In this document: one piece after another, positions 1 to 32,504 of the stretch
Layout of the letters: each line of letters opens with the position of its first letter
Position numbering within the stretch: position 1 is the stretch's first letter
Virus record (IMG/VR): IMGVR_UViG_3300045988_005956
Coordinates: 1-43,327 of that record
Strand: one strand, 5' to 3'
DNA: 43,327 nt
Source of the DNA: a virus
Position numbers and translations under genes: made by a program
The notes under the pieces: model-generated
The model's database searches: none
Told to the model about the DNA's origin: nothing
The model's input: only the letters and a program-made list of their open reading frames with translations

Positions 1-99
1 ATTTCTCCGTTGGAACCAACCGCCGCAGTGCCGGTGATTCTCTCGCCGCCCGGCGTTACCGTAAGCGGCATACCTACGAAGCCGCCGCCTTCGCCGCCA
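1..99. repeat. Terminal direct repeat. Bases 1-99 are identical to 43229-43327 (overlap of a circularly closed contig).
   Basis: Direct comparison of the first and last 99 nt. The open reading frame continues seamlessly across the junction. Confidence 0.95.
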
Positions 100-509: not shown

Positions 510-511
510 AG

Positions 512-2241: not shown

Positions 2242-2348
2242 CACTCCACCCCTTCCAGAACAGCCAGAATTTCAGCCTTTTTCATGGAACTGTTGACCCC
2301 TTCCACCCCGTTTTCCTCAGCATAATCGAGAAGCTGTGCTTTCGTCAT
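2241..2348 (-). CDS. Small HeH/Rho-N-terminal-like protein (35 aa), below the ORF-track cutoff
   Basis: The manual translation is MTKAQLLDYAEENGVEGVNSSMKKAEILAVLEGVE. This motif is common in small phage proteins that follow the capsid gene. The stop is coupled to the next start. Confidence 0.55.
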   Translation of the reverse strand: MTKAQLLDYAEENGVEGVNSSMKKAEILAVLEGVE

Positions 2349-2395
2349 GCCGGAAAACGTGGGCGGTTCAGAGGCAGGCGCTCTCAACAGTTCAT

Positions 2396-3262: not shown

Positions 3263-3264
3263 AA

Positions 3265-3858: not shown

Positions 3859-3943
3859 TTCTATCTTCCTTTCCTTTGTCCGCAGTTCGTCGCGGCGATA
3901 GATTGTATAAAAACCGCAGTGCTTCGCGGGTTTTACCTGTAAA

Positions 3944-5134
3944 TTATTTGTAGAAAACTTTTGTCCTTTCTGGTTGCTCCGGCAATCCTGCCGCCTTGCT
4001 GAACCTGCTATATTCTGCGTTCAGCCGCCGAAGCTTTATGTTCGCGGCGGTCGCGTCCTCGGAAAGCCCAGCTTCTTTGTATGCGTTTCTAAGCTTTTTC
4101 TGCGCGCGGATTTGACGCTCTATGCGGCGCTGCATCTGCGTCGCTTCATAGGCTGTGTAAGTTTTTCCATCAAACGTGCAGCCAAGACCATCGTCGATAT
4201 GCTTGAGCTGTTCGTCTGTGTAAGTTCGCTCCGAAACGCCGGGAATAAATGGATATTTGTGATGGCGGCAGTTCGCGCCGGTCAGGCCATCAACATATCC
4301 ATAGCCGGTAGTCTCCACAAGGTCATCGTAAAGCCCCAGCGGGTCAGGTTCGCCGTTTTCGCTCTGGTAATAAACTTTGCCTTGCCACTCTTTGTGTGAA
4401 GACCACGGCGAAGCGCCCGGCTTGTCACGCGCCCCAGAGTGCGCAGACACTTCAAAGTATCTCGTATCAAGGTACTCTGCGCTTTGGTTCGTGTACTGGT
4501 CGCAGATCTGATTCACGCCGGTCATGACGGCTCTCCGAACAGCAACGTCGATGTGGTCAACGTGTCCGCTTTCGTAATTCACAACTTTCAGACCGCCTGC
4601 AAGCTGCTGAACAGCAGACTTGATCGCCTGATTGTAGCTGATTGCCCCACTCTGAATCTGCATGACAGCAGAATCTAACGCCCACTGATATGCACGCGCG
4701 GGTGGAAGCATCGTTCTGCCTTTGTCCACCAGAAACCCCATAGACTGTGTGATGTTATGAAATTCGTCAAGCGTCTGCGCTCTGATTGCTTCGATTGTCG
4801 CAGCGTTCACCAGAATATCAGGCTGTGTCAGCCCTGCCATGTCGATAACCGATGTGAAATACTTCTGGTTTCTGGCAACAACGTCACCGAAAAGCTCCTT
4901 GAGCTTCTTCTCGCTAATTCCAGAGGTCTTGCGGATTGCTTTTTCAATCTCCTTCGTGCCGATACCATGCGAACGAAGCGCTCTGATTGCCTGAACAGTC
5001 ACTTCGTTCAGCTGGTCTTTCAGCGCAAGCCTACTGCATATTTCATCGAGAAGCGTATCTTCCAATCCTCGGAACAGTTCTGCCAGTTCTTCCGGCAGCG
5101 CGTCAAGGACTTCCGGATGAAACGGATATTTCAT
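3944..5134 (-). CDS. Head morphogenesis protein (SPP1 gp7 / Mu F-like minor capsid protein)
   Basis: 396-aa ORF with ...EVSAHSGARDKPGASPWSSHKEWQGKVYY...GANCRHH..., which is typical of the Mu F/gp7 family. It lies downstream of the portal gene. Confidence 0.75.
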   Translation of the reverse strand: MKYPFHPEVLDALPEELAELFRGLEDTLLDEICSRLALKDQLNEVTVQAIRALRSHGIGTKEIEKAIRKTSGISEKKLKELFGDVVARNQKYFTSVIDMAGLTQPDILVNAATIEAIRAQTLDEFHNITQSMGFLVDKGRTMLPPARAYQWALDSAVMQIQSGAISYNQAIKSAVQQLAGGLKVVNYESGHVDHIDVAVRRAVMTGVNQICDQYTNQSAEYLDTRYFEVSAHSGARDKPGASPWSSHKEWQGKVYYQSENGEPDPLGLYDDLVETTGYGYVDGLTGANCRHHKYPFIPGVSERTYTDEQLKHIDDGLGCTFDGKTYTAYEATQMQRRIERQIRAQKKLRNAYKEAGLSEDATAANIKLRRLNAEYSRFSKAAGLPEQPERTKVFYK

Positions 5135-5501
5135 TTGCTTTCCTCCGTTTCACAATATCATCGTAATGCGGTTTTACCCGTATCACGTTCCAGTCGCATT
5201 CTTCCGGTACTCTGCCGTAAAATATCACCCATTCCGGAGATAGCCGCTTCATCATTTCCTCGTATCCGCGCAGGAACAGGCGTTTGCTATCCTTGTTTGC
5301 CTGCGTCCCAACCGAAGAAACCGCCACTATGCCGCCGACAGGCTCGCCATCGAAGCACCAATCATAGCTCCTCTCATCGCTCCATGAGATCGTCGGGTAA
5401 ACCGTCATCCCGTGCATCTGCCAGTATGCCGCTAACCAGTGCTTGCGGTAATGGTTGTATAATACCGGCTCCGCCGCCTCCAGCGCCTCCAGAACTTCCA
5501 C
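5103..5501 (-). CDS. DUF4417-like protein, N-terminally short, with a GTG start
   Basis: YRKHWLAAYWQMHGMTVYPTISWSDERSYDWCFDGEPVGGIVAVSSVG matches my recollection of the DUF4417 core. Only about 17 aa precede the core. It is wedged between the portal and morphogenesis genes. Confidence 0.5.
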   Translation of the reverse strand: MEVLEALEAAEPVLYNHYRKHWLAAYWQMHGMTVYPTISWSDERSYDWCFDGEPVGGIVAVSSVGTQANKDSKRLFLRGYEEMMKRLSPEWVIFYGRVPEECDWNVIRVKPHYDDIVKRRKANEISVSSGSP

Positions 5502-5510
5502 GGCCTCCCA

Positions 5511-6914
5511 TCACTCCACCTCCTGCTGCTGTTCAGTTACCATGTCCTGCGCCTTTGGGATTGCAGCCTTTGCGGTTGCCTCGTCCTCGTTCATCCAGCG
5601 CATACGGAACTCCCAGTCGTTCATAATCCCAGCGTCCAGCAGTTGCATATCTCGCAGGAAGTCCGTCTGCTTGTCCTCGATGATAGAATCGTCAAAGTCA
5701 ATAGAAATCTGTACTTCCTCATTCAGGCCAGCTTCCATGTACCTGTTCCCCATGCGGAGCAGCGTCCTGCAAAGATCTGTGATTGCCTGTTCAAGCAAAA
5801 TCTCATGCTTCTTGATCGTTCGGAACATGGTGCTGTTCTCGCTGATAACCTGCGTCGCTGTAGCAATACTTCCCTGATCGAATTTGTAATGATTCTCACC
5901 GAAGCCGCACTTGCTGGAAAGAATATTCAGCATATCCTGCATACCGGTGTTGAACTCCTCGGTACGAAGCGTCATGTCAACAGACTGCAAGATGTTCCCG
6001 TTGTTCGCCCTGTCTTCCGGCAAAACGTAATACACAGTCTCACGTTTATCAAAGACCGGTCTTCCGTTCACGTCCCGAGTTGCTTCCGGCTGCACTACAA
6101 TGCGCTTTTTGCCAAGAACAAACTCATTCACATAGCTGTCATACGTAATATCAACGCTCTTGAGCTGGTCAATGGCATATGCAAACACAGCCACACCAAG
6201 CGGATTATTTTCATCGGTGTTCGCGATATTCAGTCTGTCAATGACAAACTGAGGCTTGTCGCTCCCTGTATGTACAACAGGAGGGATTGTTTCAAAGCCC
6301 TTTACACTGGTCAGAGGGACTTCTTCGGAATCATACAAATGGTTCTCGATGTCGTACTCGCCGCCGTTCAGCCTGTGAACTTGAATGTATGTGTACTCTG
6401 TATCGTCCACCTTTTTTGTAGAGGCGAACGCACACTCTCTGATGATTCCATTGTCCCATGTCAGGGGATAAATGTTCGTCGCGCTGACATAGTTGATACG
6501 AATGCGCCCAGAATCAGCAATTTCGGAAGTGTCCGGATTGATGAACATTCCCTCAATGACCGGAACATACGCTATCGTTCCAAGCGCTGCCTTTCGCTCC
6601 TGCGATTCGTTCGCCTTGATCTCCCAGTTGTTTTCCGAGAGAATCGTGTCTACGAACTCCTGCTCCTTCTTCCCCTCGAGCGTGATGTTTACCCGCTCGT
6701 TCATCAGAAGGTTTGCCCAGTCCTCGCATACCTTTTTCGCCATGCTTACGGAATATCTGTGGCATTCCAATTCTTCAATGCCATTCCATACCGTGTAACT
6801 GTGGAAGTCCTCGACATTCCCTTTGTACCAGTCTCCCCACACTCCGATCAGCTTGTAGAAATCGAGATCAACGGTATCGAATCCCATCTCCTTTAATGCT
6901 CTGCGTATGTTCAC
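5511..6914 (-). CDS. Portal protein (SPP1 gp6-like)
   Basis: 467-aa ORF immediately after TerL. Size and position fit a portal protein. Confidence 0.85.
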   Translation of the reverse strand: MNIRRALKEMGFDTVDLDFYKLIGVWGDWYKGNVEDFHSYTVWNGIEELECHRYSVSMAKKVCEDWANLLMNERVNITLEGKKEQEFVDTILSENNWEIKANESQERKAALGTIAYVPVIEGMFINPDTSEIADSGRIRINYVSATNIYPLTWDNGIIRECAFASTKKVDDTEYTYIQVHRLNGGEYDIENHLYDSEEVPLTSVKGFETIPPVVHTGSDKPQFVIDRLNIANTDENNPLGVAVFAYAIDQLKSVDITYDSYVNEFVLGKKRIVVQPEATRDVNGRPVFDKRETVYYVLPEDRANNGNILQSVDMTLRTEEFNTGMQDMLNILSSKCGFGENHYKFDQGSIATATQVISENSTMFRTIKKHEILLEQAITDLCRTLLRMGNRYMEAGLNEEVQISIDFDDSIIEDKQTDFLRDMQLLDAGIMNDWEFRMRWMNEDEATAKAAIPKAQDMVTEQQQEVE

Positions 6915-6918
6915 TCTT

Positions 6919-8199
6919 TCACCGTCCTATCGTATGCCCGGCGCGTTCCAGGTCTTTGTAATATGGCTCTATGCTGTACTCAAACGCATCGAGGCTGTCA
7001 ATATCGGATGTCCCATCGTCAAGTCGCTCGTCCTCGAACTTATCCGGGTCATAAATTGCTGATTGGAACGCATCGATCAAATGCGGGCAGTTCCGCGAAA
7101 CCTTGAGCCTGCCTTGCTTCATCAGCAGCACAACCAGTCTGATTCTGTCTGTGATCTGCATTTTCAGCGCGTTCTTGACCTGTGTCCCAAGATTCTGCTT
7201 CTGTGCCGTATGATCTAGCCCACGAATCAAAACCGTTTCCGCGCTGTCTGCCCGCGTCTGGCTGTATCCGTATTTCGATGTTATCAGCTTGCAAAACGTA
7301 GCAAACCGCCTGTTCAGCGCGTCAGGGTCGATCTCTTCGTTCTTGATGTATTCCTCTTCCAGTGCGACCACGCGATAGTCTTTTGTGATTCCAGTCGCTT
7401 GAAACTTCGTTGCAGACTTCGTGCCGCCGAAGTCAACGCCGATGGAAATAACGGAAAACTTTGTATCGTTTTCTTCCACCCATTTGATAGGGTCGTCAAT
7501 CAGATACTTTTCCGTGTCGTTGGCAAAGTCCTTGTAAACAATTCCCTCCGCAGCTACCCACAGCCCACGCACATAGCGGTCGTAGAATATCCCGGCGTAC
7601 ATGTTCTCATAGCGCTCAAGCGTCCTTTCGCTCAAGCCGGGGTTATCCCGCATTTCGAAATGTAGGTAAAGCGTGTTCCGTTCTCTATGCCGCTTTATCC
7701 ATTCCTGATAGAACCAGTGGTGAGGGCTTCCGGGGTTGCAAGAGAACCACAGCTTTGCACCGTCCACAGAGCAACGCGCAAGTGCCTGCTCCACAAAAGA
7801 GCGGGGCATAAGTACAACTTCGTCCAGCAGCACGCCAGCTAACGTTCTGCCTTGAATCAGCGTATAGCTTGCCTCATCCTTGCCGCCGAAAACTTCAAAA
7901 TAGTTCGTCACAGCACCGCGTCGCACTTCCATGACCTTATCGCCGCGCCGCCATCGGACGATATAGCGCTCCTTCGCAAGGCTCATCGCCGTAAACGGTA
8001 CAATGATGTTCTTTGTGCAGCTATCAACCGTGCGGCCACACACACCAAAGCGCTGCCCGCTGAAATTCTCCATCGCCCAGCGTACAAATGCCCACATCAT
8101 GATGGAGGTCTTACCGGAACGCACAGCGCCGTCGCAGATCAGCGCGTCATACTTGGAATAGGGGAATGCAAGGATTTTCTGCTGTTTTGGGCTAATCAT
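6919..8199 (-). CDS. terL: Terminase large subunit (PBSX/Terminase_3-like, headful type)
   Basis: It has the Walker A motif CDGAVRSGKTS near the N-terminus and is about 426 aa long. The ATG at 8199 has a GGGGAG RBS, and the track also offers 8226. Confidence 0.9.
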   Translation of the reverse strand: MISPKQQKILAFPYSKYDALICDGAVRSGKTSIMMWAFVRWAMENFSGQRFGVCGRTVDSCTKNIIVPFTAMSLAKERYIVRWRRGDKVMEVRRGAVTNYFEVFGGKDEASYTLIQGRTLAGVLLDEVVLMPRSFVEQALARCSVDGAKLWFSCNPGSPHHWFYQEWIKRHRERNTLYLHFEMRDNPGLSERTLERYENMYAGIFYDRYVRGLWVAAEGIVYKDFANDTEKYLIDDPIKWVEENDTKFSVISIGVDFGGTKSATKFQATGITKDYRVVALEEEYIKNEEIDPDALNRRFATFCKLITSKYGYSQTRADSAETVLIRGLDHTAQKQNLGTQVKNALKMQITDRIRLVVLLMKQGRLKVSRNCPHLIDAFQSAIYDPDKFEDERLDDGTSDIDSLDAFEYSIEPYYKDLERAGHTIGR

Positions 8200-19772: not shown

Positions 19773-20015
19773 TCATGCCCCCGTAAGCACCGCGCCGACG
19801 AAGAAGCACGCCGCCGCCCGGAACAGGCCGAAGCCCAGCATAACCGCCGTACCGCCCAGCAGCATACACGCCACAGAGAAGCAGGCCGTTTCCGCGATCT
19901 TCATCAGGCTCTTTTGCCGCTTGCGAAGCCGCACGATCTCATCCCACCTTTCGCCAAGCTCGCGCTCCCGCGCCGCCCGGTGGTTTAACTCCGTGATAAT
20001 TTCAACGTCACTCAT
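19773..20015 (-). CDS. Small membrane protein
   Basis: The start MSDVEII... follows GGAGGC. The C-terminal half is hydrophobic (FSVACMLLGGTAVMLGFGLF..FFVGAVL). Confidence 0.5.
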   Translation of the reverse strand: MSDVEIITELNHRAARERELGERWDEIVRLRKRQKSLMKIAETACFSVACMLLGGTAVMLGFGLFRAAACFFVGAVLTGA

Positions 20016-20820
20016 TCTCTGCCTCCACAAATTCGCCGCACATGATATTCTCCGGCTTGGTCTTCGCGATAATTTTTCTGTATTCGCTTGTGATTCTCAC
20101 GCGGAGGCCTGCGTAAATGCCAAACTCACAGCCTGCCTCGATGCCATAGCCTGCCTCGATGCCATAGCCTGCCTTGATGCCATAGCCTGCCTCGATGCCA
20201 TAGCCTGCCTTGATGCCATAGCCTGCCTTGATGCCATAGCCTGCCTTGATGCCCCAGCCTGCCTTGATGCCCCAGCCTGCCTCGATGCCCCAGCCTGCCT
20301 CGATGCCACAGCCTGCCTCGATGCCATAGCCTGCCTTGATGCCATAGCCTGCCTTGATGCCATAGCCTGCCTCGATGCCTTCGCCTGCCTCGATGCCACA
20401 GCCTGCCTTGATGCCATAGCCTGCCTTGATGCCATAGCCTGCCTTGATGACATAGCCTGCCTCGATGCCACAGCCTGCCTCGATGCCACAGCCTGCCTCG
20501 ATGCCACGGCCTGCCTTGATGCCCCAGCCTGCCTCGATGCCCCAGCTTGCCTTGATGCTTCCGGAAACTTCTAGCCGTCCAGCAAAAATGATTGATTTTT
20601 CGGTGATCAGATCGCCGTCGACCTTCCGGACATCATCCGTCCTGCCGAATTCTGAAAGCAGCCATAATCCGTAACTGAAATTCTTCTCCGCGCAGCAGTC
20701 CAGCAAATCCTGATACTCTACGCCATCCGGATACTTTTCTTGCGGGAATTCTTTCAGAAAATCCATGTATCCAGCTGCACATGCGCCTTTCTCCCGCAGG
20801 AGCTCCTTTGTAATTTTCAT
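20008..20820 (-). CDS. Hexad-repeat protein: a 90-aa unique N-terminal domain followed by about 25 x G-I-(E/K)-A-G-(Y/W/C)
   Basis: The AAGGAGG RBS precedes the ATG at 20820 (MKITKELLREKGACAAGYMDFLKEFP...). The reading frame was chosen by continuity with the non-repetitive N- and C-termini. Confidence 0.75.
   Translation of the reverse strand: MKITKELLREKGACAAGYMDFLKEFPQEKYPDGVEYQDLLDCCAEKNFSYGLWLLSEFGRTDDVRKVDGDLITEKSIIFAGRLEVSGSIKASWGIEAGWGIKAGRGIEAGCGIEAGCGIEAGYVIKAGYGIKAGYGIKAGCGIEAGEGIEAGYGIKAGYGIKAGYGIEAGCGIEAGWGIEAGWGIKAGWGIKAGYGIKAGYGIKAGYGIEAGYGIKAGYGIEAGYGIEAGCEFGIYAGLRVRITSEYRKIIAKTKPENIMCGEFVEAENE
20107..20562. repeat. Tandem 18-bp repeat array (about 25 units, consensus GCCTGCCT(C/T)GATGCC(A/C)(T/C/A)A on the plus strand)
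   Basis: The array is read directly. Units differ at essentially three nucleotide positions, and there are no spacers. Confidence 0.95.
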
Positions 20821-20876
20821 TTCATCCTCCTTAAATAATCTTCCTTGCCGAGTGGGGCTTTTCTGTTTGCTGCATA

Positions 20877-21274
20877 GCCTTTGCGTCTCTGAGCCCTTCG
20901 CAGCCCTGCCGCCGCTACGCATTGCTGAGCTTTACATTGCCTTTGCCATGCCGATCAATGCCCATCTCTGCCCTTGCCTGTCGAAGCAAAGCGCGCGTTA
21001 CTACGCCGTTGCCAATCCTTGCTTTACTTCGCCCTTGCCACGCGATCTTTGCTTTACTTTGCCTTTGCCGCGCCAGTCCAGGCCTCGCCGCGCGGCTCAT
21101 AGCCCTCGCGTCGCTTATCCTAGCCTTTCCATCGCAAAACATAGCATCCCATGCCGCCGCGAAGCCAGACTATTCTTTGCCTTTGCGAGGCACATCAAAT
21201 CTCTACAGTGCCGTTGCCACGAATTGCATAGCAAAGCCTTTGCGTACCCAGCATTGCAATACCAAGCCTTTGCT
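20877..21274. repeat. Iteron-like array: at least 10 copies of GCC(T/C/G)TTGC(C/G/T), including three about-25-bp units GCTTTAC(A/T)T(T/C)GCC(T/C)TTGCC
   Basis: Copies start at 20877, 20939, 20970, 21005, 21031, 21061, 21179, 21210, 21236 and 21266. The long units are at 20929-20953, 21021-21045 and 21051-21075, and the last two form a 30-bp tandem. Confidence 0.8.
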
Positions 21275-25652: not shown

Positions 25653-26634
25653 AAAACTGCCGTCCGGCTCTTACCGATGCCGAGTGATGGTAAATGGGGA
25701 AGCGAGGTCGTTCACTGCCGGAACGAAGCGAGAAGCAGAGCAGGCAGCTTTAGAATACAAAATCGGTATCCTTTCTGCCGAGGAGGCCAAGCCGGAAATA
25801 ACAATCCGCAAAGCCATAGACGAATACCTGGAATTCAAGAGCGGCACTCTTTCCCCAGCGTCTATTCGCGGACACAGAATCAAGCAACGGTGTTACCTTC
25901 AACCTATTATGGATGTCCCCTTATCCAAACTCTCCGTGAGTGCTATACAGCAGGCGATCAACGCCGAAAAATGCAGCCCGAAGACCATCCGCGAAACATG
26001 GGCGCTGATACGTCCGGCGCTTAAGCGATATGGTGTATCATACGAAGTGGCGCTTCCCACCGTCCAATCTGACGAGCACGCTTTTTTGTCTGCGGAAGAA
26101 ATTCCTGTGTTTTTGAAAGCGGCAGAAGGGAGTAAGTATGAAATCGCGTTTCTTCTTGCACTGCACTCTCTGCGTGTGTCAGAAATTCTTGGTTTGCGTT
26201 GGGAGAACGTTGATCTAAAAAAGCAGTCTATCACGGTTCGAGGAGCTACATTGTTCGACGAAAACAACAAACTGGTAAACAAAGTGTCTAACAAAAACCG
26301 CTCTTCACGGCGGACTATCCCAATCATGGTACCGAGGCTGTCGCAGCTGCTTTCAGAAGCAGAAAGATCGAGTGATTTTGTCATCGTTGCAAATCCGAAC
26401 AGCATTCGCGCTGCATCAAATAAAATATGCAAGGAAGCGAATTTGCCAGAAGTCGGGACACACGGTCTGCGGCATTCCTTCTGCTCCCTTGCATATAAGC
26501 TTGGTATATCGGAAAAAGTCACGATGCAGCTGGGCGGATGGTCAGACTACGGAACAATGCGTAAAATCTATACACACATCGCACAAGCAGACATTTCCGA
26601 GTCTGTGCAGGAAATGAAAAAGTTCTTCTCTTAA
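25624..26634 (+). CDS. int: Tyrosine recombinase / phage integrase
   Basis: 336 aa with LALHSLRVSEILGLRWENV...HGLRHSFCSLAY...GGWSDYGTMRKIYTH, which is the R..HxxR..Y pattern. Confidence 0.9.
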   Translation: MKKLKVPEAEKLPSGSYRCRVMVNGEARSFTAGTKREAEQAALEYKIGILSAEEAKPEITIRKAIDEYLEFKSGTLSPASIRGHRIKQRCYLQPIMDVPLSKLSVSAIQQAINAEKCSPKTIRETWALIRPALKRYGVSYEVALPTVQSDEHAFLSAEEIPVFLKAAEGSKYEIAFLLALHSLRVSEILGLRWENVDLKKQSITVRGATLFDENNKLVNKVSNKNRSSRRTIPIMVPRLSQLLSEAERSSDFVIVANPNSIRAASNKICKEANLPEVGTHGLRHSFCSLAYKLGISEKVTMQLGGWSDYGTMRKIYTHIAQADISESVQEMKKFFS

Positions 26635-26656
26635 TTTTGCCACGATATTTGCCATG
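26635..26656 (+). repeat. Two arm-type direct repeats (TTTTGCCACG, ATATTTGCCATG) immediately after the int stop
   Basis: The repeats are seen directly and belong to the same family as the six copies at 26811-26897. Confidence 0.6.
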
Positions 26657-26700
26657 AAAATAAAAAGCGCAGTGTTTTCAACTGGTTTAAAGCTCAATTC

Positions 26701-26728
26701 GAGAGTTCGAATCTCTCCTTCCGCGCCA
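26701..26728 (+). other. attP core candidate: a tRNA 3'-end fragment (T-arm GAGAG-TTCGAAT-CTCTC, acceptor 3' strand CTTCCGC, discriminator G, CCA)
   Basis: The canonical T-loop and CCA are read directly. No matching 5' acceptor strand (GCGGAAG) or D-arm lies upstream, so this is not a complete tRNA. Confidence 0.7.
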
Positions 26729-26734
26729 AAGAAG

Positions 26735-26772
26735 AAACCCTGTAATCTCAAGTGATTACAGGGTTTTCCTTT
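26735..26772. terminator. Bidirectional intrinsic terminator (13-bp stem AAACCCTGTAATC/GATTACAGGGTTT with T-rich flanks on both strands)
   Basis: The hairpin is seen directly and follows the tRNA-like 3' end, as in host tRNA loci. Confidence 0.75.
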
Positions 26773-26800
26773 GTATATCAAGGCTTTCAGGCATTTCGAG

Positions 26801-26897
26801 CGTATCATTTATTTGCGATGCGTATCAATTATTTGACACGCAAAACACAATTTTGACACGCATTTTTGCCACGGAATTTGCCACGCTTTTTGCCTCG
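26801..26897 (+). repeat. Arm-type repeat cluster: a 20-bp tandem (CGTATCATTTATTTGCGATG / CGTATCAATTATTTGACACG) and six copies of (A/T)TTTG(C/A)C(A/T/G)(C/T)G
   Basis: Copies end at 26820, 26840, 26860, 26873, 26885 and 26897. All are in the same orientation. Confidence 0.65.
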
Positions 26898-27245
26898 TCA
26901 TAGGGACTTTATTTTTCTTAAAACAGAATCATATACCCTTCGGTTTACAAGTGAAAGCGTGTCCATGAGTTCGTCAACGACCGTCCAAGCCTTCGCCGGG
27001 TCTTTCCCGGCTACCGCAAGCAAAAACTCACTGTCCCCGTAATCGCCCACGGTAGCCGGTTGCGCGGTAACAGGAGCGGGAGCGCCGGAGTAGTAACCCA
27101 CATACCTACCGCCGTCGCCCCGTTCCTCTTCCTGCATCTTGTCGCGTATCACATATAGGTTCGCCAGTTTGGCATAATTGGGATAGCTGGATTCTTCGTA
27201 TTCCAGCCGTGCTATTTCCTTTCGGATTTCGGCTTCATCCAGCAT
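26898..27245 (-). CDS. Hypothetical cargo protein (115 aa)
   Basis: The RBS is AAGGAGGG. It is the last gene before attP. Confidence 0.6.
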   Translation of the reverse strand: MLDEAEIRKEIARLEYEESSYPNYAKLANLYVIRDKMQEEERGDGGRYVGYYSGAPAPVTAQPATVGDYGDSEFLLAVAGKDPAKAWTVVDELMDTLSLVNRRVYDSVLRKIKSL

Positions 27246-27257
27246 GTCTTTCCCTCC

Positions 27258-27629
27258 TTATGCTCTGTCAATCTGCTCCATGCAGCGGCGGATAGCCTCG
27301 CGCGTCTTATCATCGTCCGCGTCGCGCATCATGTCTTCCAGCGTCGAGCGCATATGCTCCCGAGCATCGGTCCGGCTGTATCGCCCCATAGAATCGCGAC
27401 GCCTGCCACGGTAGGAGCTTCCGCGCCCATACGTGCCGCGCATGTCCGCCTCCCACTCTCCGTCACGCGAATACCCGCCATCCTCGAGCATTTCGATTTT
27501 ATAAGTGTTCTTGATGGAACTGGTAAGCTTCTGGATGGCATCCAGATCGCCAGCGGACATTTCGCGCTTGTCGGCGATTTCGTCCAGCTCTTTGCAGAGC
27601 ATTTCCCGAAGGTTTCTCAAATCGTACAT
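27258..27629 (-). CDS. Hypothetical charged protein with an R/S/Y/G-rich centre
   Basis: The ATG at 27629 (MYDLRNLREML...) lies 7 nt after GGAGG. The low-complexity stretch is GTYGRGSSYRGRRRDSMGRYSR. Confidence 0.6.
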   Translation of the reverse strand: MYDLRNLREMLCKELDEIADKREMSAGDLDAIQKLTSSIKNTYKIEMLEDGGYSRDGEWEADMRGTYGRGSSYRGRRRDSMGRYSRTDAREHMRSTLEDMMRDADDDKTREAIRRCMEQIDRA

Positions 27630-27643
27630 ATTCCTTCCTCCCT

Positions 27644-28066
27644 TCACGATACGCGCTCGACGATCATATTGCTATTTGCGAAACTGATCGCCTGTGCGCT
27701 GGTGTTCTTTGCTGCTACAGTCAGGCAGCAGCCGCGCGGAACTTCCACGAATGCAGAAACGTAGATGTTGAAATAGTTCTCAACAGCCGCAGGGGTTACG
27801 GTCGCTGTGGCGCTGTTCAAAGCCTCCCCGTTAATGGCGAGCGCAGCGGTGATAGCTCCGACTGTTCCGCCTGTAGGAATGGCGATATTCGCGCCAAAGG
27901 ATACACGGAACTTCGCCTTGCACTGCTGCGTCAGACCACGCAGCGTAACAAGTCCGCTTCCGTCACGGTGGACGATACACGGTTTGCCACAAGCCGACGT
28001 GGAAATTAGAGGGACGTTCTGCCCAGCGGCAACAGTTTGAATTCCGGATGATGTAAATTCAGCCAT
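27644..28066 (-). CDS. BclA C-terminal-domain-like (C1q/TNF jelly-roll-like) protein
   Basis: 140 aa with an all-beta-looking sequence. The end NSNMIVERVS parallels BclA ...SASIIIEKVA. The assignment is from memory of BclA and is unverified. Confidence 0.45.
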   Translation of the reverse strand: MAEFTSSGIQTVAAGQNVPLISTSACGKPCIVHRDGSGLVTLRGLTQQCKAKFRVSFGANIAIPTGGTVGAITAALAINGEALNSATATVTPAAVENYFNIYVSAFVEVPRGCCLTVAAKNTSAQAISFANSNMIVERVS

Positions 28067-28098
28067 AAAATCATTCCTTTCTGCCTCGAATTAGAGGC

Positions 28099-28132
28099 AA
28101 TTAAAATAGCGGCGGGACGATTGCCCCGCCGC
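28099..28132 (-). terminator. Intrinsic terminator (GCGGCGGG-loop-CCCGCCGC followed by TATTTTAATT on the minus strand)
   Basis: The hairpin is seen directly. It lies between the 262-aa gene and the BclA-like gene. Confidence 0.55.
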
Positions 28133-28199
28133 GTTGATCGAGTATCGGCAAGGAACCGATCATTTTCGTGACCTCACGAAAAAGCTCTACGTTATGGAG

Positions 28200-28988
28200 T
28201 TAAGCGCAGTTGCCGCAGCCGTAGTTATAGCCGCTATTGCAGCCTGCAAACTGGTACGGAGCCGGCACCGCGAACGACGGGACCGGACGCGGGTTATAAT
28301 ACGCCAGCTGTCCACTTACGTAGGACTTGAGCGTGTCGTTCTGCGCCGCCTGAGAAGCCGCCAGCTGCGCCGCAAAGAGCTGCTGGTTCTGCTCGGCAAT
28401 CTTCGCGTCCTTTGCAGCCAGTTCCTGCGCCGTCAATCTCTGGTCGATGCTGCGGAAGCCGCAGTTCATCGCGTCGATGATGTCGCGAGTGCTGTTCTGC
28501 ATCTGGTTGCGAGTGTCACAAGCCTGCGTCGCGAGGTTATAATTGATACCCTGAATCGCCTCTCTGGTCTCGCAGCAGCAGTTTGCAGCCTGCATCGCCA
28601 TGTTGTTCAGCTGCTGCATAAGCGCGGCCTGCTGATTGCAGCGGGAAAGCTCCGCCTGAGAGAAGCCGGAAGTCACAGCCTGCGTTACACCGGCAAAGCC
28701 GTTAAGCATCCCCGTGTTCATCGCATAGAAGCCGTCGCAGACACCATTGTTCACGCTGTCAATCTTTCTTTCGATGTTCGAGAAGTCAGAGGCCAGAACA
28801 TAGCCGTCAACAACGCCGCCGTTCCCTCCACGGTTGCCAAAGCCGTTTCCGTTACCCCAGCCGCAGAAAATCGCGAGGAACAGGATAATGATCCACCAGC
28901 CATTACCGCCGCCCCATCCGTTTCCGCCGTCCGAGTTTGCCGGAACTACAGGCATGTTCATAGGAATACCATCGCCATTCAAACTCAT
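28200..28988 (-). CDS. G/N/W-rich membrane protein with a Q/N/A-rich coiled-coil-like centre and Cys clusters
   Basis: The RBS is AAAGGAGA. The sequence contains GGNGWGGGNGWWIIILFLAIFCGWGNGNGFGNRGGNGG, ANCCCETREA and the C-terminal GCNSGYNYGCGNCA. Confidence 0.65.
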   Translation of the reverse strand: MSLNGDGIPMNMPVVPANSDGGNGWGGGNGWWIIILFLAIFCGWGNGNGFGNRGGNGGVVDGYVLASDFSNIERKIDSVNNGVCDGFYAMNTGMLNGFAGVTQAVTSGFSQAELSRCNQQAALMQQLNNMAMQAANCCCETREAIQGINYNLATQACDTRNQMQNSTRDIIDAMNCGFRSIDQRLTAQELAAKDAKIAEQNQQLFAAQLAASQAAQNDTLKSYVSGQLAYYNPRPVPSFAVPAPYQFAGCNSGYNYGCGNCA

Positions 28989-29069
28989 AGTTTTCTCCTT
29001 TCGTAGATTTTGAAATTTATCTCAATCGTGGCCACGATTTTGACCGTTCAGCTGTTCGGAATTTCTGAA

Positions 29070-29285
29070 CTACTGCATCAACTGCTGAAACTGTCCAGCC
29101 ATCTGCTGTAGCTGGTTCAACTGCTGCTGCGAGATTTTCCCAGACTGTACCAGCTTCTCAACCTCCGCCCTCGGGTCTCCCTGAAAGCTCTGCTTGAACT
29201 GCTGAAACTGCCGCATCATATTTTGAAACTGCCCAATAGCCCCGGGCATTTGCCCGCCGCCGAGTGCATTAAACAGTGGGTTCAT
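29070..29285 (-). CDS. Small Q-rich protein (71 aa)
   Basis: The RBS is AAGGAGG. The sequence contains QFQNMMRQFQQFKQSFQG...QQQLNQLQQMAGQFQQLMQ. Confidence 0.6.
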   Translation of the reverse strand: MNPLFNALGGGQMPGAIGQFQNMMRQFQQFKQSFQGDPRAEVEKLVQSGKISQQQLNQLQQMAGQFQQLMQ

Positions 29286-29739
29286 TGTCTGCCTCCTTCG
29301 CCTTTCTAACGGGCTTGACGCTCAGAGCCGCCACCTTTGCCGCCAGTTCGTCAAAGTCCTTGCGGGTCACGTACTCCACCGTGGGCGCTGTTTGCGGCGC
29401 TGTGGGGCTCACGGGGGCTGTAGAGCGCTCTACGAGGTCATACGTTGTCATTGCTGGTTTACCGCTTGCGTCGGCTTTCTTCACATACACAACCGGTGCA
29501 TTCATATCCCAAAGCGTGACAGCGTTATTCGGCGCGACGATAAATTCGTTTGCCGCCTTTTCGTTCGGAACCCAGATGATAGACTGTCCCCCGCTCGGTT
29601 GCTGTGGCTGTGGTTGCGGAGCAGGATACTGCATCGACGGCGCAGGCTGATACTGTGGACGCATCATTGGGTCCTGCATCATGGGCGGTTGATTGTAAAT
29701 CGGCTGCTGATACACATAAGGCTGTTGTCCGAACATCAT
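29269..29739 (-). CDS. Protein with a P/Q/M/Y-rich N-terminus and a small globular domain
   Basis: The RBS AAGGAGG lies inside the upstream gene's end. The N-terminus is MMFGQQPYVYQQPIYNQPPMMQDPMMRPQYQPAPSMQYPAPQPQPQQP. Confidence 0.6.
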   Translation of the reverse strand: MMFGQQPYVYQQPIYNQPPMMQDPMMRPQYQPAPSMQYPAPQPQPQQPSGGQSIIWVPNEKAANEFIVAPNNAVTLWDMNAPVVYVKKADASGKPAMTTYDLVERSTAPVSPTAPQTAPTVEYVTRKDFDELAAKVAALSVKPVRKAKEADNEPTV

Positions 29740-30119
29740 TTATCCTCCTTTTCCCAGTAGAACAGCGGGATTTCGTTCCCGGAATCCCAGCTATCAAAAT
29801 ACTTTCCGTCCTCTACGCACACGACGTGGCTTGATAGAGCTAGTACATACACACCGCGCGGATGGTCTCTCGCGAATTCCTCGACCGTATAGCAGTCCGG
29901 GCATGTGTTCGGCACAACATTCCGGGTAAATCCATGCTGCCGGAGGTACGCGCCCCAGACACTGTTTGCCGACGGCATGTCCCCCATTTTCAAACCCTGT
30001 AGGCAAAGCCCAACATATGTTTCATCCCAGCTCTTTCCCGTCGCCTTCGCAATCGCCCGAACGGTACAGTCTCCGACTTGTTTTCCTTCCGGGTTTGGAT
30101 TGAAATAAGAAAAGCCCAT
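29736..30119 (-). CDS. Papain-fold-like (Cys...His) hypothetical protein
   Basis: The ATG at 30119 lies 8 nt after AAAGGAG. The candidate catalytic Cys is in VGDCTVRAIA. The candidate His is in LSSHVVCVEDGKYFDSWD. Confidence 0.5.
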   Translation of the reverse strand: MGFSYFNPNPEGKQVGDCTVRAIAKATGKSWDETYVGLCLQGLKMGDMPSANSVWGAYLRQHGFTRNVVPNTCPDCYTVEEFARDHPRGVYVLALSSHVVCVEDGKYFDSWDSGNEIPLFYWEKEDK

Positions 30120-30184
30120 ACCGAACACTCCTTTGATGTGTCCAGTATGGGCTTTTTACTATTTTCCTGTGCCTCAGTTATGCA

Positions 30185-30367
30185 TCAGTTTTGCTCAAAT
30201 AAATATGTGGCAATCCAGCCGCGTATCAGTTCGTTTGGCGTCGTGCCGTTGGCCCTCGCTGCGGTCTTAAAGTTTTCCGCGATCTCCCGCTTGAGTTTGC
30301 AGGAGATCACGGACATGTTTTCTGCATCCCACTTGTCGCGGGTGCGCTTCTGCGCTTCCGTCGGCAT
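30185..30367 (-). CDS. Ribbon-helix-helix (CopG/Arc-like) DNA-binding protein
   Basis: 60 aa with a beta strand MSVISCKL followed by two helices. The ATG shares one nucleotide with the upstream TGA. Confidence 0.55.
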   Translation of the reverse strand: MPTEAQKRTRDKWDAENMSVISCKLKREIAENFKTAARANGTTPNELIRGWIATYLFEQN

Positions 30368-30567
30368 CAGTAGCAGGGGTTCTCTTTGCTGAGCTCCCAC
30401 TCTTCGCCATACTTGGCTTCGTGACGGGCCTCATACGCAGTAAAAAACTCCTGATCGGTGCATGGCGCAAGTTCCACGTGGAGATCTTCACGGATGTCAT
30501 CATCCATCAGTGCAACCGCCGCGTCAAAGTTGATTTCTGTACCGTTTTTGTTGATTACCATAGCCAT
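30367..30567 (-). CDS. Small acidic hypothetical protein (66 aa), the first gene of the cargo operon
   Basis: The RBS is GGAGGG. Translation begins MAMVINKNGTEINFDAAVALMDDDIREDLHVELAPCTDQEFF... Confidence 0.6.
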   Translation of the reverse strand: MAMVINKNGTEINFDAAVALMDDDIREDLHVELAPCTDQEFFTAYEARHEAKYGEEWELSKENPCY

Positions 30568-30612
30568 TTTTAAACCCTCCGTAATTTGTATTTGGTTTAT
30601 CTCTATGGTCTC

Positions 30613-30641
30613 ATTATATACGGTATTACCGTATATGTCAA
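30613..30641 (-). promoter_or_regulatory. Perfect consensus sigma-A promoter TTGACA-N17-TATAAT
   Basis: The -35 box lies at 30641-30636 and the -10 box at 30618-30613 (minus strand). It is about 45 nt upstream of the ATG at 30567. Confidence 0.8.
30616..30636. promoter_or_regulatory. Operator-like perfect palindrome ATATACGGTA-T-TACCGTATAT filling the promoter spacer
   Basis: The 10-bp arms are read directly. The palindrome overlaps the -10 box and touches the -35 box. Confidence 0.7.
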
Positions 30642-30660
30642 GGGCTTTTCAAAAATTTTT

Positions 30661-30694
30661 ATAAAAAAATAAGCGCCGAGAAACCGGCGCTTAT
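30661..30694 (-). terminator. Intrinsic terminator (ATAAGCGCCG-loop-CGGCGCTTAT followed by TTTTTTAT on the minus strand)
   Basis: The hairpin is seen directly, 2 nt after the stop of 30696-30944. Confidence 0.8.
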
Positions 30695-30695
30695 C

Positions 30696-30944
30696 TCAGT
30701 TATACAGTTTGTTGGATGTCCGCTGCATCTCCCGCACGATACCGGGAAGCCGCCTCTGTACCGTAGCGCGGCCAATATACAGCTCTGTCGCAACGTCAAC
30801 CTGTGGGAGCTTATCCACAAAGTAGAGCTGCGCGATCTTTGCGTCTTCGCGGCCGAGATTCGATTGGTAAATAACCGTCTCCATATCCCGGCGCATCAGT
30901 CCGCCAAGCTCCGGCGGGAGTTTTGCCCGCGCCTGCGGTGCCAT
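30696..30944 (-). CDS. Sigma-70 region-4-like HTH protein (82 aa)
   Basis: The sequence is EDAKIAQLYFVDKLPQVDVATELYIGRATVQRRL. The RBS AAGGTGG lies 12 nt after the endolysin stop. Confidence 0.55.
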   Translation of the reverse strand: MAPQARAKLPPELGGLMRRDMETVIYQSNLGREDAKIAQLYFVDKLPQVDVATELYIGRATVQRRLPGIVREMQRTSNKLYN

Positions 30945-30956
30945 AATAACACCACC

Positions 30957-31649
30957 TTACTTCATCGCAGCTGCGAGTTTTTTGAGAAGATCGTCGCCGT
31001 ATTTATACGCGGCGAGGTAATCGATCGTGCTGTCTGTAAGACCAGCCTTCTGCTTGATGGTCTTCTTTGCTTCCTCGACGGCCTCGTCGACCTTCACGGT
31101 GTCGTACTCGACCCAAGGGAGCTTTCCGTGCTTCCGCCAATTGCGGGCGTGGTAGCCTGCTTTCGTGCCGATGTTCTGGACGGCGGTGATCTGTGCGCCG
31201 TTGTCCCAGATCGGGGTGCATTCGACCGCCAGACCATCACCGATGTACATGCCCCAGTGACCGGGCATCCAGAGACCTTCGCCTGGAATCAGCTTGTCCC
31301 AGCCGATGCCGGACACGGCGTAGCACTTGGCGATCATGCCGTCGGCGGAGACATCCGGCACGCTGTTCGAGGCGTACCTTGCACCGCCGTAGTAAGCGTT
31401 TTTGTTGCCGTTCCAGCCCCAGAGAATGCCCTTCGTGAGGTTCACGCAGTCAAAGCCATAGACAACTTTTCCGATGAGGCTGCGCAGATATGTGACTCTG
31501 CCGCTGGTGTACCAGTCCGGGTACTGGGCGGATTTCTCGTCAATGATCGTTTCGCTCACGGGAGAGCCGAAGCAGCCCCACATGTAGACGGTCTTGTAGT
31601 TCTTCGCAACGTCAATGTGCCTGCGCACAAGCTCAGATGCTTTCATCAT
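30957..31649 (-). CDS. Endolysin, NlpC/P60 (C40 peptidase)-like
   Basis: The motifs are YMWGCFG, FDCVNLTKG (Cys) and GHWGMYIGDG (His). It lies immediately after the holin-like genes. Confidence 0.7.
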   Translation of the reverse strand: MMKASELVRRHIDVAKNYKTVYMWGCFGSPVSETIIDEKSAQYPDWYTSGRVTYLRSLIGKVVYGFDCVNLTKGILWGWNGNKNAYYGGARYASNSVPDVSADGMIAKCYAVSGIGWDKLIPGEGLWMPGHWGMYIGDGLAVECTPIWDNGAQITAVQNIGTKAGYHARNWRKHGKLPWVEYDTVKVDEAVEEAKKTIKQKAGLTDSTIDYLAAYKYGDDLLKKLAAAMK

Positions 31650-31885
31650 TTCTTTTCGACCTCCTGCGGCGTACTCGCACTGTCAAGCACATCCTGCGTC
31701 TTCTGGGACTGGGTCCCGAAATAAAACGCGATAATGACGGCGTAGATCGTCATAAAGTCCTGCGAGATCTTACCGGCTACAGACATGTACGCAAACACGC
31801 CCGTCAGGACCAGCGTAACCAGAGACTTGACGCTGAGCAAATTGCCCAGCCGCTTTTTAATGTTATCCATATGTACCCCTTTCAT
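31646..31885 (-). CDS. Holin (2 TM)
   Basis: 79 aa with hydrophobic segments LVTLVLTGVFAYMSV and IYAVIIAFYFG. An alternative start lies at 31870. Confidence 0.6.
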   Translation of the reverse strand: MKGVHMDNIKKRLGNLLSVKSLVTLVLTGVFAYMSVAGKISQDFMTIYAVIIAFYFGTQSQKTQDVLDSASTPQEVEKK

Positions 31886-32145
31886 TCTACCGGTTCATTT
31901 TTCTTTGCGAATACTCGTTTAAATGCCAGCAGGCCCAGCTCTGTTACTGCCGCGCCCCCGGCGTAGCCGAGCACGTCGGACAGGTCGACCGACGTACCAA
32001 GCTCCGGGTTGCTTCCGACTGCGATAAGGACAGCGATGGTTTTAAGCGCGCACGCCCAGATCAGCACCATCGTCAGGAGTCTGAGCAGATAGATGACGAT
32101 GGTGCGCGCCATCTCGCCTTTGCTCCACTTGCCTTTTACCCGCAT
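31882..32145 (-). CDS. Holin-like membrane protein
   Basis: 87 aa with an RBS (GGGAGG) and 2-3 hydrophobic helices. Confidence 0.55.
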   Translation of the reverse strand: MRVKGKWSKGEMARTIVIYLLRLLTMVLIWACALKTIAVLIAVGSNPELGTSVDLSDVLGYAGGAAVTELGLLAFKRVFAKKNEPVE

Positions 32146-32159
32146 ATCCGCCTCCCGTT

Positions 32160-32504
32160 TTATTGCGCGATGCTATGCTCGCACTGCGCCTCCAGCTGAT
32201 GCAAAAACTTTTTTACATCGCCGTTTCCGCCCAGCTTGACGTATTTCTGCCCGGCAATCAGGCGCTCTGCCATCGGCATCTCCTCGGACATGATCGTCAA
32301 CCGCAGGATTGCAAGATACTGCTCGTCCTGATGCTCCTGCATTTTGCCGAGCTTTTTGTCGATCTCTGCAAGGTGCGTATCCTGCGTCGTGGTCTTCCCG
32401 CGCTTTTTCTGTATCGCGCTGACGACGGCATTGACGACCGCCGTCAGCGCGGACGAGCCGAGCACGGCGCAGACGAGGGTAACGATGATGGTCTTGGTGT
32501 CCAT
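32160..32504 (-). CDS. N-terminally anchored membrane protein (lysis-cassette associated)
   Basis: The RBS is AAAGGAGA. The TM segment is IIVTLVCAVLGSSALTAVVNAVV, followed by a charged helical tail. Confidence 0.5.
   Translation of the reverse strand: MDTKTIIVTLVCAVLGSSALTAVVNAVVSAIQKKRGKTTTQDTHLAEIDKKLGKMQEHQDEQYLAILRLTIMSEEMPMAERLIAGQKYVKLGGNGDVKKFLHQLEAQCEHSIAQ

Follow-up and report, generated by a model that had tools for sequence, protein, structure and literature searches.

Evidence for a conserved late-gene cassette of gut viruses that encodes a cysteine-rich membrane-type protein and a predicted exosporium-like jelly roll

The C-terminal domains (CTDs) of BclA and F-BclA and the protein ExsF (BxpB, ExsFA), all from the Bacillus exosporium and F-ENA, share a TNF-like jelly roll (PF18573; 1wck, 9h38, 8d02, 9h3d, 7r1m). 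TNF/C1q-like knobs are also common on phage fibres and spikes, and morons are found at the lysin–attR end of Firmicutes prophages. At the late-operon end of such prophages, XepA of PBSX and YomS of SPbeta, encoded alongside XhlA, XhlB and XlyA, are oligomeric, beta-rich accessories of the lysis cassette. Here we compare with these systems a group of genes in a 43,327-nucleotide (nt) stretch of viral DNA, positions 1 to 43,327 of IMG/VR record IMGVR_UViG_3300045988_005956 (hereafter the window). An earlier note had singled out six minus-strand open reading frames (ORFs) between positions 26,898 and 29,739 and took them for possible spore- or cell-surface remodelling genes carried as lysogenic-conversion cargo. 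All six lie exactly where it had placed them and are real genes. Instead of the proposed cargo, they very probably form part of a conserved late-gene cassette of gut viruses that is neither cargo nor spore-specific. The unit is also larger than six, since a peptidase-like gene (29736–30119) and a small helix-turn-helix (HTH) gene (30696–30944) belong to it too. Two of its products, the jelly-roll protein g140 and the membrane-type protein g262, carry most of the comparison that follows.

g140 (27644..28066, minus strand; 140 residues; PHROG 20016, E = 6e-58) is predicted by AlphaFold2 (AF2) and Foldseek to be a stand-alone TNF-like jelly roll of the BclA_C/ExsF kind. A first model, built on a shallow alignment, had a pLDDT of 60 and generic TNF-like matches only, and was replaced. 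Homologues 51–69% identical, obtained by profile search, were used in a 71-sequence alignment for the final AF2 monomer model, which has a pLDDT of 93.1 and a pTM of 0.85. Against the Protein Data Bank (PDB), Foldseek ranks the F-BclA CTD (9h38, TM 0.75–0.77) first, with the BclA CTDs 3tyj, 3twi, 1wck and 2z5w among the first-ranked and ExsF, BxpB and ExsFA (9h3d, 8d02, 7r1m) at TM 0.68–0.75. The top matches (9h38, 3tyj, 9h3d, 8d02, 7r1m and 1wck) span E-values of 3e-7 to 3e-6 and TM 0.67–0.77, with root-mean-square deviations of 2.7–3.9 Å and a similar size of about 135–150 residues, and these exosporium domains outrank EDA, 4-1BBL, C1q-like proteins and phage spike knobs. The likeness to the BclA CTD that had been proposed for this ORF is thus supported, because a high-confidence model best matches F-BclA, BclA and ExsF/BxpB. 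As modelled, ExsF/BxpB is the closer analogue, since g140 is likewise a stand-alone domain without collagen; like ExsF/BxpB, it is also made without a signal peptide.

There are also differences from the exosporium domains. Sequence identity is only 9–14%, g140 itself has no match to Pfam BclA_C (PF18573) at E ≤ 1, and, unlike BclA, it has neither collagen-like GXX repeats nor an N-terminal targeting motif and is encoded by a phage late gene. The C-terminus, by contrast, is a shared trait, as g140 ends ...NSNMIVERVS and BclA ...IIIEKVA. A CC motif (C113, C114) is conserved, and the family members listed are 129–188 residues long. In the BFVD database, the best structural matches are stand-alone proteins of 130–145 residues from uncultured gut phages of sipho-, podo- and myo-type (TM 0.81–0.89), two of which already bear the name 'BclA protein'.

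The slot that follows g262 is filled by at least four protein types, of which g140 represents type A. Profile alignment by hhalign connects type A to type B with 97% probability and type B to type C with 92%, whereas type D proteins show no sequence relation to g140. Type B comes nearest to the exosporium family at the sequence level: its member in locus L039 (L-numbers are labels of the loci examined) reaches E = 0.004 against BclA_C, at 17.5 bits below the gathering cut-off of 38, and BclA chains make up five of its eight weak PDB matches. In a combined B and C profile, BclA chains appear at E 2–6 only, and a combined A, B and C profile retrieves none from the PDB. Neither g140 nor the type B, C or D proteins match Pfam DUF3992 (Ena) or DUF4183 (F-ENA). 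In six loci (L002, L010, L012, L019, L022 and L052) an extra ORF of 74–109 codons (MATYKDIKQKFIDHL...) lies between the terminator after g262 and g140; in L038 the two genes are separated by one for a 62-residue protein whose hydrophobic helix resembles that of g262.

g262 (28200..28988, minus strand; 262 residues; PHROG 16490, E = 3e-48) is the hallmark protein of the cassette. A short N-terminal tail is followed by a conserved hydrophobic helix with linkers rich in Gly, Asn and Trp on either side, 11-residue repeats, a CCC motif and a coiled-coil-like segment, and the C-terminal part consists of a P-x-P-A-Y motif and a Cys-rich tail; the whole protein has 11 cysteines. The helix, WWIIILFLAIFCGW, is its single hydrophobic segment, and no other cassette protein has one. 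This agrees with the description of the ORF in the earlier note, which had also likened it to YjcZ. The YjcZ family (TIGR01732) comprises tiny Gly-rich single-helix proteins of about 30–50 residues; the likeness is compositional only, around the hydrophobic helix, and g262 has no match to that NCBIfam model at E ≤ 1. The g262 family has 1,379 cluster representatives (50% identity, E ≤ 1e-3), all of 220–340 residues and with zero fusions. Its invariants (alignment A6) are a GW that follows the helix, G-x-CDGFY, CCC, ASQ..Q, P-x-P-A-Y and the Cys-rich tail.

Among close relatives, g262 falls into at least seven allele classes with 63–100% identity, on a backbone that is otherwise 93–99% identical. 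The variation lies in three regions. The first comprises the N-tail together with the hydrophobic helix and the Gly-rich linkers, the second is residues 70–110, where an 11-residue insertion or deletion equals one repeat, and the third surrounds CCC. Residues 165–225 are invariant. The alleles reassort, with a weak correlation with g71 (the 71% allele of g71 accompanies the 81–83% allele of g262) and none with the holins. g140 has two classes among the same relatives, at about 94–100% and 73–76% identity; g123 is 97–100% identical, and g130 and g156 are about 95% identical. Wide variation is likewise seen in the holins (47–100%) and tail-fibre genes (medians 33–86%).

Compared with the known membrane proteins of phage lysis, g262 shares with Rz-type i-spanins and class III holins an N-terminal membrane helix, a long helical or coiled-coil domain, conserved cysteines and the vicinity of lysis genes. 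It differs in having no o-spanin partner and no Pfam holin or spanin match, and its carriers include phages whose monoderm hosts make a spanin unnecessary. No cassette protein matches a lysis family in Pfam, NCBIfam or PHROG. Holin and endolysin genes nevertheless adjoin the cassette, and a membrane-spanning segment is predicted for g262 from its sequence. A role as the holin was rejected, two small membrane proteins already being encoded directly upstream of the lysin, as was holin–antiholin co-evolution, given the uncorrelated alleles. The only PDB sequence matches of g262 are to influenza HA2 (E 0.07–1.6); they vanish entirely with the family profile A6, and a reading as a homologue or fusion protein is therefore rejected. 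The PBSX and SPbeta accessories share with the cassette XhlA-like and holin genes that flank it in L038, L051 and L033. Beyond a weak Pfam XhlA match in a neighbouring gene no sequence relation to them is detected, and the cassette, unlike those accessories, has seven or eight genes, its own regulator and a peptidase.

Conservation of the cassette was traced in 51 loci from a scan of species-representative genomes with g262, and in close relatives of the window, namely 80 IMG/VR loci with a lysin 91–100% identical, of which 57 reach at least 5.2 kb past the lysin. The order g130-g156-g71-g262-g140-g123-g115 is kept down to about 50% identity. In general terms, the 51 loci have an optional small HTH gene, an optional g130, g156-like, g71-like and g262-like genes, the jelly-roll slot, a slot whose helical protein, g123-like or DUF7841, has a disordered region rich in RDY/RGY, and an end slot taken by g115, by a g130-like protein or by SprT-like HExxH proteins, of which there are one or two. 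Some version of the cassette is present in 56 of the 57 close relatives: 48–49 have the version of the window and eight a divergent one, and the remaining genome has a deletion from the HTH gene to g140. The divergent version in L118 is complete, with g156-like and g71-like proteins, a 187-residue g262-like protein (CCC and a CGCGG tail), a 150-residue jelly-roll candidate and a DUF7841 protein. A reduced version follows a 97% identical lysin in L075 (10433–12008); the jelly-roll gene is absent, and the genes encode a 231-residue protein with a Gly-rich hydrophobic N-terminus, coiled-coil-like middle and CGCCKN end, then a 112-residue protein and a DUF7841 protein.

Mobile cargo is found immediately upstream. 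In three insert-free relatives the junction between the HTH gene and g130 is 71–74 nt long and lacks a terminator; most other relatives have inserts of 0.6–2.5 kb there, with acr-aca or other cargo. All these inserts begin alike, with a shared terminator and a consensus sigma-70 promoter in which an inverted repeat forms the operator. The junction is the moron hot spot, and the inserts are its autonomous units. The window has an anti-CRISPR-type insert here (30185–30694), with the terminator ATAAGCGCCG...CGGCGCTTAT followed by seven T (30669–30694), a perfect TTGACA-17-TATAAT promoter (30641–30613) with an inverted repeat between the hexamers (30616–30636), an AcrIC5-like gene (30367–30567; Pfam, 2e-25) and a ribbon-helix-helix Aca-like gene (30185–30400). 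Its acr is present in only eight of the 57 close relatives, and L075 holds an inverted pair. The cassette resembles morons in its position between lysin and attP and in the promoter-like element and terminator around g262. It differs from them in that almost the whole lineage carries it and that it is continuous with the late operon, and instead of forming an autonomous promoter–gene–terminator unit of variable presence, it has flanking signals of its own only at g262. As judged from gene order and conservation, the cassette is backbone that continues the lysis operon rather than cargo.

Late timing is indicated by distant carriers that have recoded a stop codon. In L043, L046 and L059, TAG is read as Gln and is concentrated in late genes; in g140 homologues of such phages it falls exactly at the conserved Gln of ...TANALQTV.... 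Per 1000 codons, the cassette has 9.5 in-frame TAG, against 9.6 for structural genes and 1.1 for replication genes (Fisher p = 5e-9 for the cassette compared with replication genes). PMC10879173, citing Borges et al., reports recoded stops as over-represented in structural and lysis genes, where they gate late translation. If that account applies, the late-class TAG density implies that the cassette of recoded phages is translatable only after the late code switch, and it therefore cannot, in these phages, be a prophage-expressed conversion factor. These three loci and L029, L031 and L040 carry DnaE, NrdD and dUTPase genes on the opposite strand, and no integrase was found in the stretches seen of the six. 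In L034 and L040, TGA is a sense codon across the locus, apparently for Trp (for example, at the conserved WW of g262).

The host range is broad, most hosts being assigned from metagenome bins or from the annotation of records. Crass-like phages (L146; NC_055893.1, 14828-16871) were reached through the DUF7841 partner; among them, cr4_1 has the order endolysin, holin, gp15, gp16, gp17 and structural genes. gp15 is a DUF7841 protein with an RGY-rich tail, gp17 is type D-like, and gp16 is an unmistakable g262 homologue, with GGNGGWWWIWIILIWFCWGGNGFGG, CCC and a GYGCGCNNYWG tail. A tblastn search with gp16 retrieved many Crassvirales as well as the Bacteroides uniformis phage C3_41T2LP and viruses assigned to Methanomassiliicoccales. 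The homologue in the cultured C3_41T2LP (L147; OR296439.1, 33454-34371; family HMM, that is hidden Markov model, E = 1e-32) is followed by genes for a CC-containing beta-rich protein, a coiled-coil protein and an RDY-rich peptide, and then for a helical protein that is DUF7841-like by eye (no match to the DUF7841 HMM) and one annotated as a HExxH 'PolyVal' metallopeptidase. A Methanomassiliicoccales-assigned virus has analogous neighbours around its homologue (L149; BK063680.1, 24565-25488), and one gene of these viruses is annotated as phrog_16490, the PHROG of g262. Carriers of the cassette are thus found among the phages of Clostridia, Bacilli and Bacteroidota, and probably include an archaeal virus with methanogenic hosts; their contigs may be of sipho-, podo- or myo-type. 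The cassette is not restricted to spore-formers, as an exosporium or coat component would be, since the hosts of the Crassvirales, the B. uniformis phage and the Methanomassiliicoccales-assigned virus form no spores; where the host does not sporulate, the jelly-roll slot is occupied by another beta-rich protein. A spore-specific role therefore cannot be the general function.

We tentatively favour, as a possibility short of even, a membrane-anchored oligomer of g262 with a jelly-roll trimer as its cap, served by helpers and a peptidase, that acts at lysis or egress or leaves with the progeny. Within the late operon the cassette comes last, beyond the holin, the lysin and the small sigma-like HTH gene. 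In the late lytic cycle, g262 would enter the cytoplasmic membrane through its single conserved hydrophobic helix and oligomerise through the 11-residue repeats and the coiled coil. Its Pro- and Cys-rich C-terminal tail would be capped by a jelly-roll trimer, here g140, much as ExsF/BxpB trimers capture terminal peptides of partner proteins, of which 9h3d, a complex of ExsF with a peptide, is an example. g156, g71, g123 and g115, which are disordered or helical, may be assembly helpers; a dedicated peptidase, papain-like g130 here and a SprT-like or PolyVal HExxH protein elsewhere, would process one component; and the conserved cysteines could form cross-links within the assembly after a breach of the reducing cytoplasm. 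The assembly would then work at the membrane around lysis and egress, or depart with progeny. We suggest that it meets a strain-variable partner, because many alleles of g262 and g140 reassort on a near-identical backbone, for which diversifying selection on the cassette is the best reading.

Several points count against this proposal. The contact between g262 and g140, the topology of g262 in the membrane and the substrate of the peptidase are all things that we infer. The alleles of g262 and g140 reassort independently, unlike those of a tightly co-evolving pair; in the Bacteroides phage the cassette adjoins recombination genes, not lysis genes; and g262, with its own palindrome or promoter-like element and terminator, has the anatomy of an autonomously expressed moron too. 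No g262 homologue is present in the first 50 kb of crAss001, a phage for which detailed virion and lysis data exist. Finally, a lysis role is hard to square with very different host envelopes, unless the target is the cytoplasmic membrane.

A broader form of the proposal, which we regard as unlikely, is a late membrane apparatus, not described before, that is shared by tailed viruses infecting two or more phyla of bacteria and probably also methanogenic archaea. Its parts would be a Cys-rich stalk anchored in the membrane (g262), an exchangeable trimeric jelly-roll cap with a BclA/ExsF-type fold in Firmicutes phages, RGY-rich partners, a peptidase and often a sigma-like regulator, and it would serve a host-independent egress step or form an adhesive, disulfide-cross-linked coat on progeny or released membrane. 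If so, the coat could possibly stick to host spores or gut surfaces, and the exosporium BclA/ExsF fold and the phage knob would share ancestry. The placement of that fold in a phage late-gene context bears on the origin of the nap proteins of the spore surface. Members of the g262 family are mostly on complete gut phage genomes of about 43 kb, and no function has been described for any part of the cassette. Being common, conserved in order and variable in alleles, it likely matters for how gut viruses leave or find hosts, a question that the cultured carrier C3_41T2LP makes directly testable.

The main rival to the membrane-anchored assembly is a non-essential virion accessory, in which g262, its hydrophobic N-part removed, forms the shaft and the jelly-roll trimer a distal knob that binds host, spore or mucus glycans, with the helical proteins as fibre chaperones and the peptidase maturing the fibre. 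We consider it rather unlikely. The late-class recoding, equal to that of structural genes, would suit a virion part, and in L029, L031, L059 and vir335 the cassette comes directly after tail-fibre or baseplate genes. As in phage fibres and spikes, a coiled-coil-like shaft goes with a jelly-roll protein, expression is predicted to be late and alleles are swapped, here with at least four jelly-roll types in one slot, as in receptor-binding genes. The Foldseek matches of g140 include the phi812 central spike knob, cyanophage tail proteins, 'fibritin neck whiskers' and collagen-C1q proteins. GenBank labels crAss-like g262 homologues 'outer capsid protein/viral fiber' and 'spike protein/glycoprotein', but these labels are computational, and the HA2-like similarity is lost with the family profile. 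Shaft and knob are moreover separate polypeptides here, and the most conserved part of the shaft is a membrane-type hydrophobic helix. In the window and its relatives the cassette follows holin and lysin, outside the tail module, in a phage that already has a hypervariable tail-fibre block, and it is present on contigs of sipho-, podo- and myo-type.

Superinfection exclusion, or defence or anti-defence, is quite improbable. On this account g262, with its variable exposed N-tail, and its partners would block competitors or delay lysis, after the rI/rIII logic of T4. The variation in the N-tail, helix and juxtamembrane linkers of g262, the free reassortment of alleles on a conserved backbone, the neighbouring anti-CRISPR insertion hot spot, and the dedicated regulator and palindromic element would all fit. 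PADLOC, however, gives no match of note; in temperate phages, exclusion genes usually belong to the lysogeny module and the prophage expresses them, whereas the cassette is of late class; and seven or eight genes with a TNF-like trimer and a peptidase far exceed the needs of known exclusion systems.

The spore reading of the earlier note, which would have the genes expressed in lysogens or sporulating mother cells and BclA/ExsF-like and coat-like proteins added to the exosporium, could apply to the Clostridia lineage only, and even there we hold it very improbable. It draws on the exosporium proteins being the best structural matches of g140; on Cys-, Gly/Asn/Tyr- and RSY-rich compositions that, with signal peptides absent, fit assembly in the mother-cell cytoplasm; on the small GerE/sigma-r4-like regulator and the promoter-like and terminator signals of g262; and on the location of the cassette at the prophage end beside attP, with spoIIE in the host of a relative. 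Against cargo of this kind speak the near-universal presence of the cassette with the insertion hot spot upstream, the late-class recoded stops, and its occurrence in phages that apparently read TGA as Trp genome-wide and in carriers with their own DnaE and NrdD in which no integrase was seen. The theme of g262, DUF7841 and jelly roll recurs in Crassvirales, a cultured Bacteroides phage and a Methanomassiliicoccales-assigned virus. Collagen repeats are absent, no ExsY/CotY-like partner occurs among the cassette proteins, and none of them matches a spore family in Pfam or NCBIfam. The note's alternative, self-assembling proteins used during infection, stands closer to the evidence, although its specific form as an intracellular scaffold or condensate, in which phase separation of the P/Q-, Q/M- and R/G/Y-rich proteins at the membrane would concentrate factors for assembly or packaging, is most unlikely: the extreme low-complexity segments of g156, g71 and g123 and the RGY/RDY-rich region kept in equivalents of Firmicutes, crAss-like and Bacteroides phages favour it, but it leaves the structured, hypervariable g262/jelly-roll pair and the peptidase unexplained, and the low-complexity regions are of variable length, with some lineages lacking them.

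The remaining cassette genes are likewise real and belong to widespread families (g262 and g140 each comprise more than 7,800 clusters at 90% identity). The six proteins of the original cluster give nothing above threshold in Pfam, NCBIfam, PADLOC or PDB sequence searches; a Pfam TMP_2 match of g71 and a YppG match of g156 were set aside as compositional. g130 (29736..30119, minus strand; 127 residues; PHROG 3754, E = 2e-33) is a putative papain-like cysteine peptidase, its residues having the catalytic order Cys...His...Asp; across 27 sequences, conservation of D17, C18, H98 and D109 is 90% or higher. It has no match in Pfam or among PDB sequences. Its likely start is the ATG at 30119, with AGGAG 8 nt before, and the ORF listing has a GTG at 30128. 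The far end of the cassette is occupied in other lineages by a g130-like or a SprT-like HExxH protein. The SprT-like proteins conserve H58, E59 and H62 (11 sequences) and reach E = 5.5e-5 against Pfam SprT-like (23.4 bits; cut-off 25.6). Two unrelated peptidase-like families thus alternate in the cassette, with catalytic residues conserved in each.

sig82 (30696..30944, minus strand; 82 residues), a sigma-70 region-4/GerE-like HTH protein, starts 12 nt after the lysin stop. It matches the NCBIfam sigma70-ECF region 4 (E = 7e-4), and its homologue in L051 matches Pfam Sigma70_r4_2 (2e-4). All 57 close relatives have it, it heads the cassette in many loci, and it lies directly upstream in about 25 of the 51.

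g156 (29269..29739, minus strand; PHROG 21718, E = 1e-30) combines a disordered N-terminus, a conserved beta-rich domain of about 55 residues and a C-terminal helix, and its family is present in 44 of the 51 loci (alignment A5), with no match in Pfam or PDB. The compositions pointed out earlier are all confirmed: residues 1–48 of g156 are 79% P/Q/M/Y, the Gln/Met/Phe-rich helical g71 (29070..29285, minus strand; 71 residues; PHROG 22984, E = 2e-21) is 27% Gln, and g123 has an R/S/Y/G-rich centre, GYSRDG...RGSSYRGRRRD. g71 always lies between g156 and g262. g123 (27258..27629, minus strand; 123 residues, 15% Arg and 13% Asp; PHROG 28802, E = 2e-9) has helical ends around its R/G/S/Y/D-rich disordered centre; elsewhere its slot holds related or DUF7841 proteins with the same RDY/RGY-rich region, including gp15 of cr4_1. 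g115 (26898..27245, minus strand; 115 residues), mostly helical, is the last cassette gene in this lineage; its synteny is conserved in 19 of the 51 loci, and searches of Pfam, PHROG and NCBIfam gave no match. By local sequence entropy among the 70 ORFs of the window, g156 is third, g123 seventh and g140 eighth lowest. A literature search found no paper mentioning DUF7841 or phage C3_41T2LP.

The DNA signals noted earlier also stand, with one qualification. Shine–Dalgarno motifs precede every ATG of the six ORFs and are GGAGG, AGGAG or AAGGAG in five, as expected of the strong AGGAGG-type ribosome-binding sites that had been described; g140 has only the weaker AAAGGA. The terminator and the 16-bp palindrome are both real and both conserved in relatives. 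The former is an intrinsic terminator-like GC-rich hairpin with a T-run between g262 and g140 (GCGGCGGGGCAATCGTCCCGCCGC then TATTTT, 28132–28109 on the minus strand), and an equivalent GC-rich hairpin, usually with the T-run, follows g262 in most related loci. The perfect palindrome AATCGTGGCCACGATT, followed by GAGATAAAT, lies upstream of g262 (29024..29039) and is a candidate operator, promoter element or weak hairpin. Its 14-bp core occurs once in the window, and in at least 12 related loci the core TCGTGGCCACGA, or close variants of it, is conserved upstream of g262. In addition, a hairpin with 19-bp arms (inverted repeat I1; 30110..30156, minus strand) encloses the ribosome-binding site and ATG of g130. 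Its sequence is conserved in all relatives, with or without the upstream insert, and it may either control translation or terminate the inserted operon. Rfam has no match within 26400–32300.

The window looks like a complete, circularly permuted genome of a temperate siphophage of about 43 kb, with PHROG matches to terminase, portal, minor and major head proteins, tape measure and a tail collar fibre; an IMG/VR relative of 43,267 nt has a lysin 100% identical. On the minus strand, the hypervariable tail-fibre block is followed by two small membrane proteins (31646–32145, putative holins by size and position, one of them a PHROG 'membrane protein'), the lysin (30957–31649), directly upstream of the HTH gene, the insert and the cassette, and a gap of 263 nt separates g115 from the convergent integrase. 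Elsewhere the cassette follows a holin_LLH-like gene (L043, L046 and L059), lies between an XhlA-like gene and an amidase (L038) or comes after lysin, holin and HTH genes (L033), and in cr4_1 its relatives follow the holin. In one phage type of about 43 kb (L063–L065, positions 1–8100) it stands directly after a 3,760-residue polyvalent protein (LPD23, LPD3) and before the integrase, and no lysin was recognised between the two.

The attachment site proposed near the cluster is borne out. The candidate attP core (26700–26731) reads on the plus strand like a tRNA 3′ end, ...GTTCGAATCTCTCCTTCCGCGCCA, and is 97% identical over 32 nt to the junction of prophage end and host DNA in the integrated relative L052; no complete tRNA was found in the window. 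In circular relatives the cassette converges on the integrase, and in integrated relatives it adjoins host genes, which in L052 are cobW, an SLH protein gene and spoIIE, so that at least one host of a close relative has spoIIE. A perfect 13-bp inverted repeat (26735–26766) beside the attP core forms a bidirectional terminator-like hairpin between the integrase and g115. A prophage remnant in a 120-kb bacterial contig (L062, 9339–10818) has a truncated g262-like ORF, an intact g140 and g123, adjoins an ISL3 transposase fragment and lies near cobW genes, like the L052 attachment site. Elsewhere in the window, a 304-residue ORF (20008–20922, minus strand) contains a long tandem hexapeptide repeat, GI(K/E)AGY, the segment of lowest entropy in the whole window.

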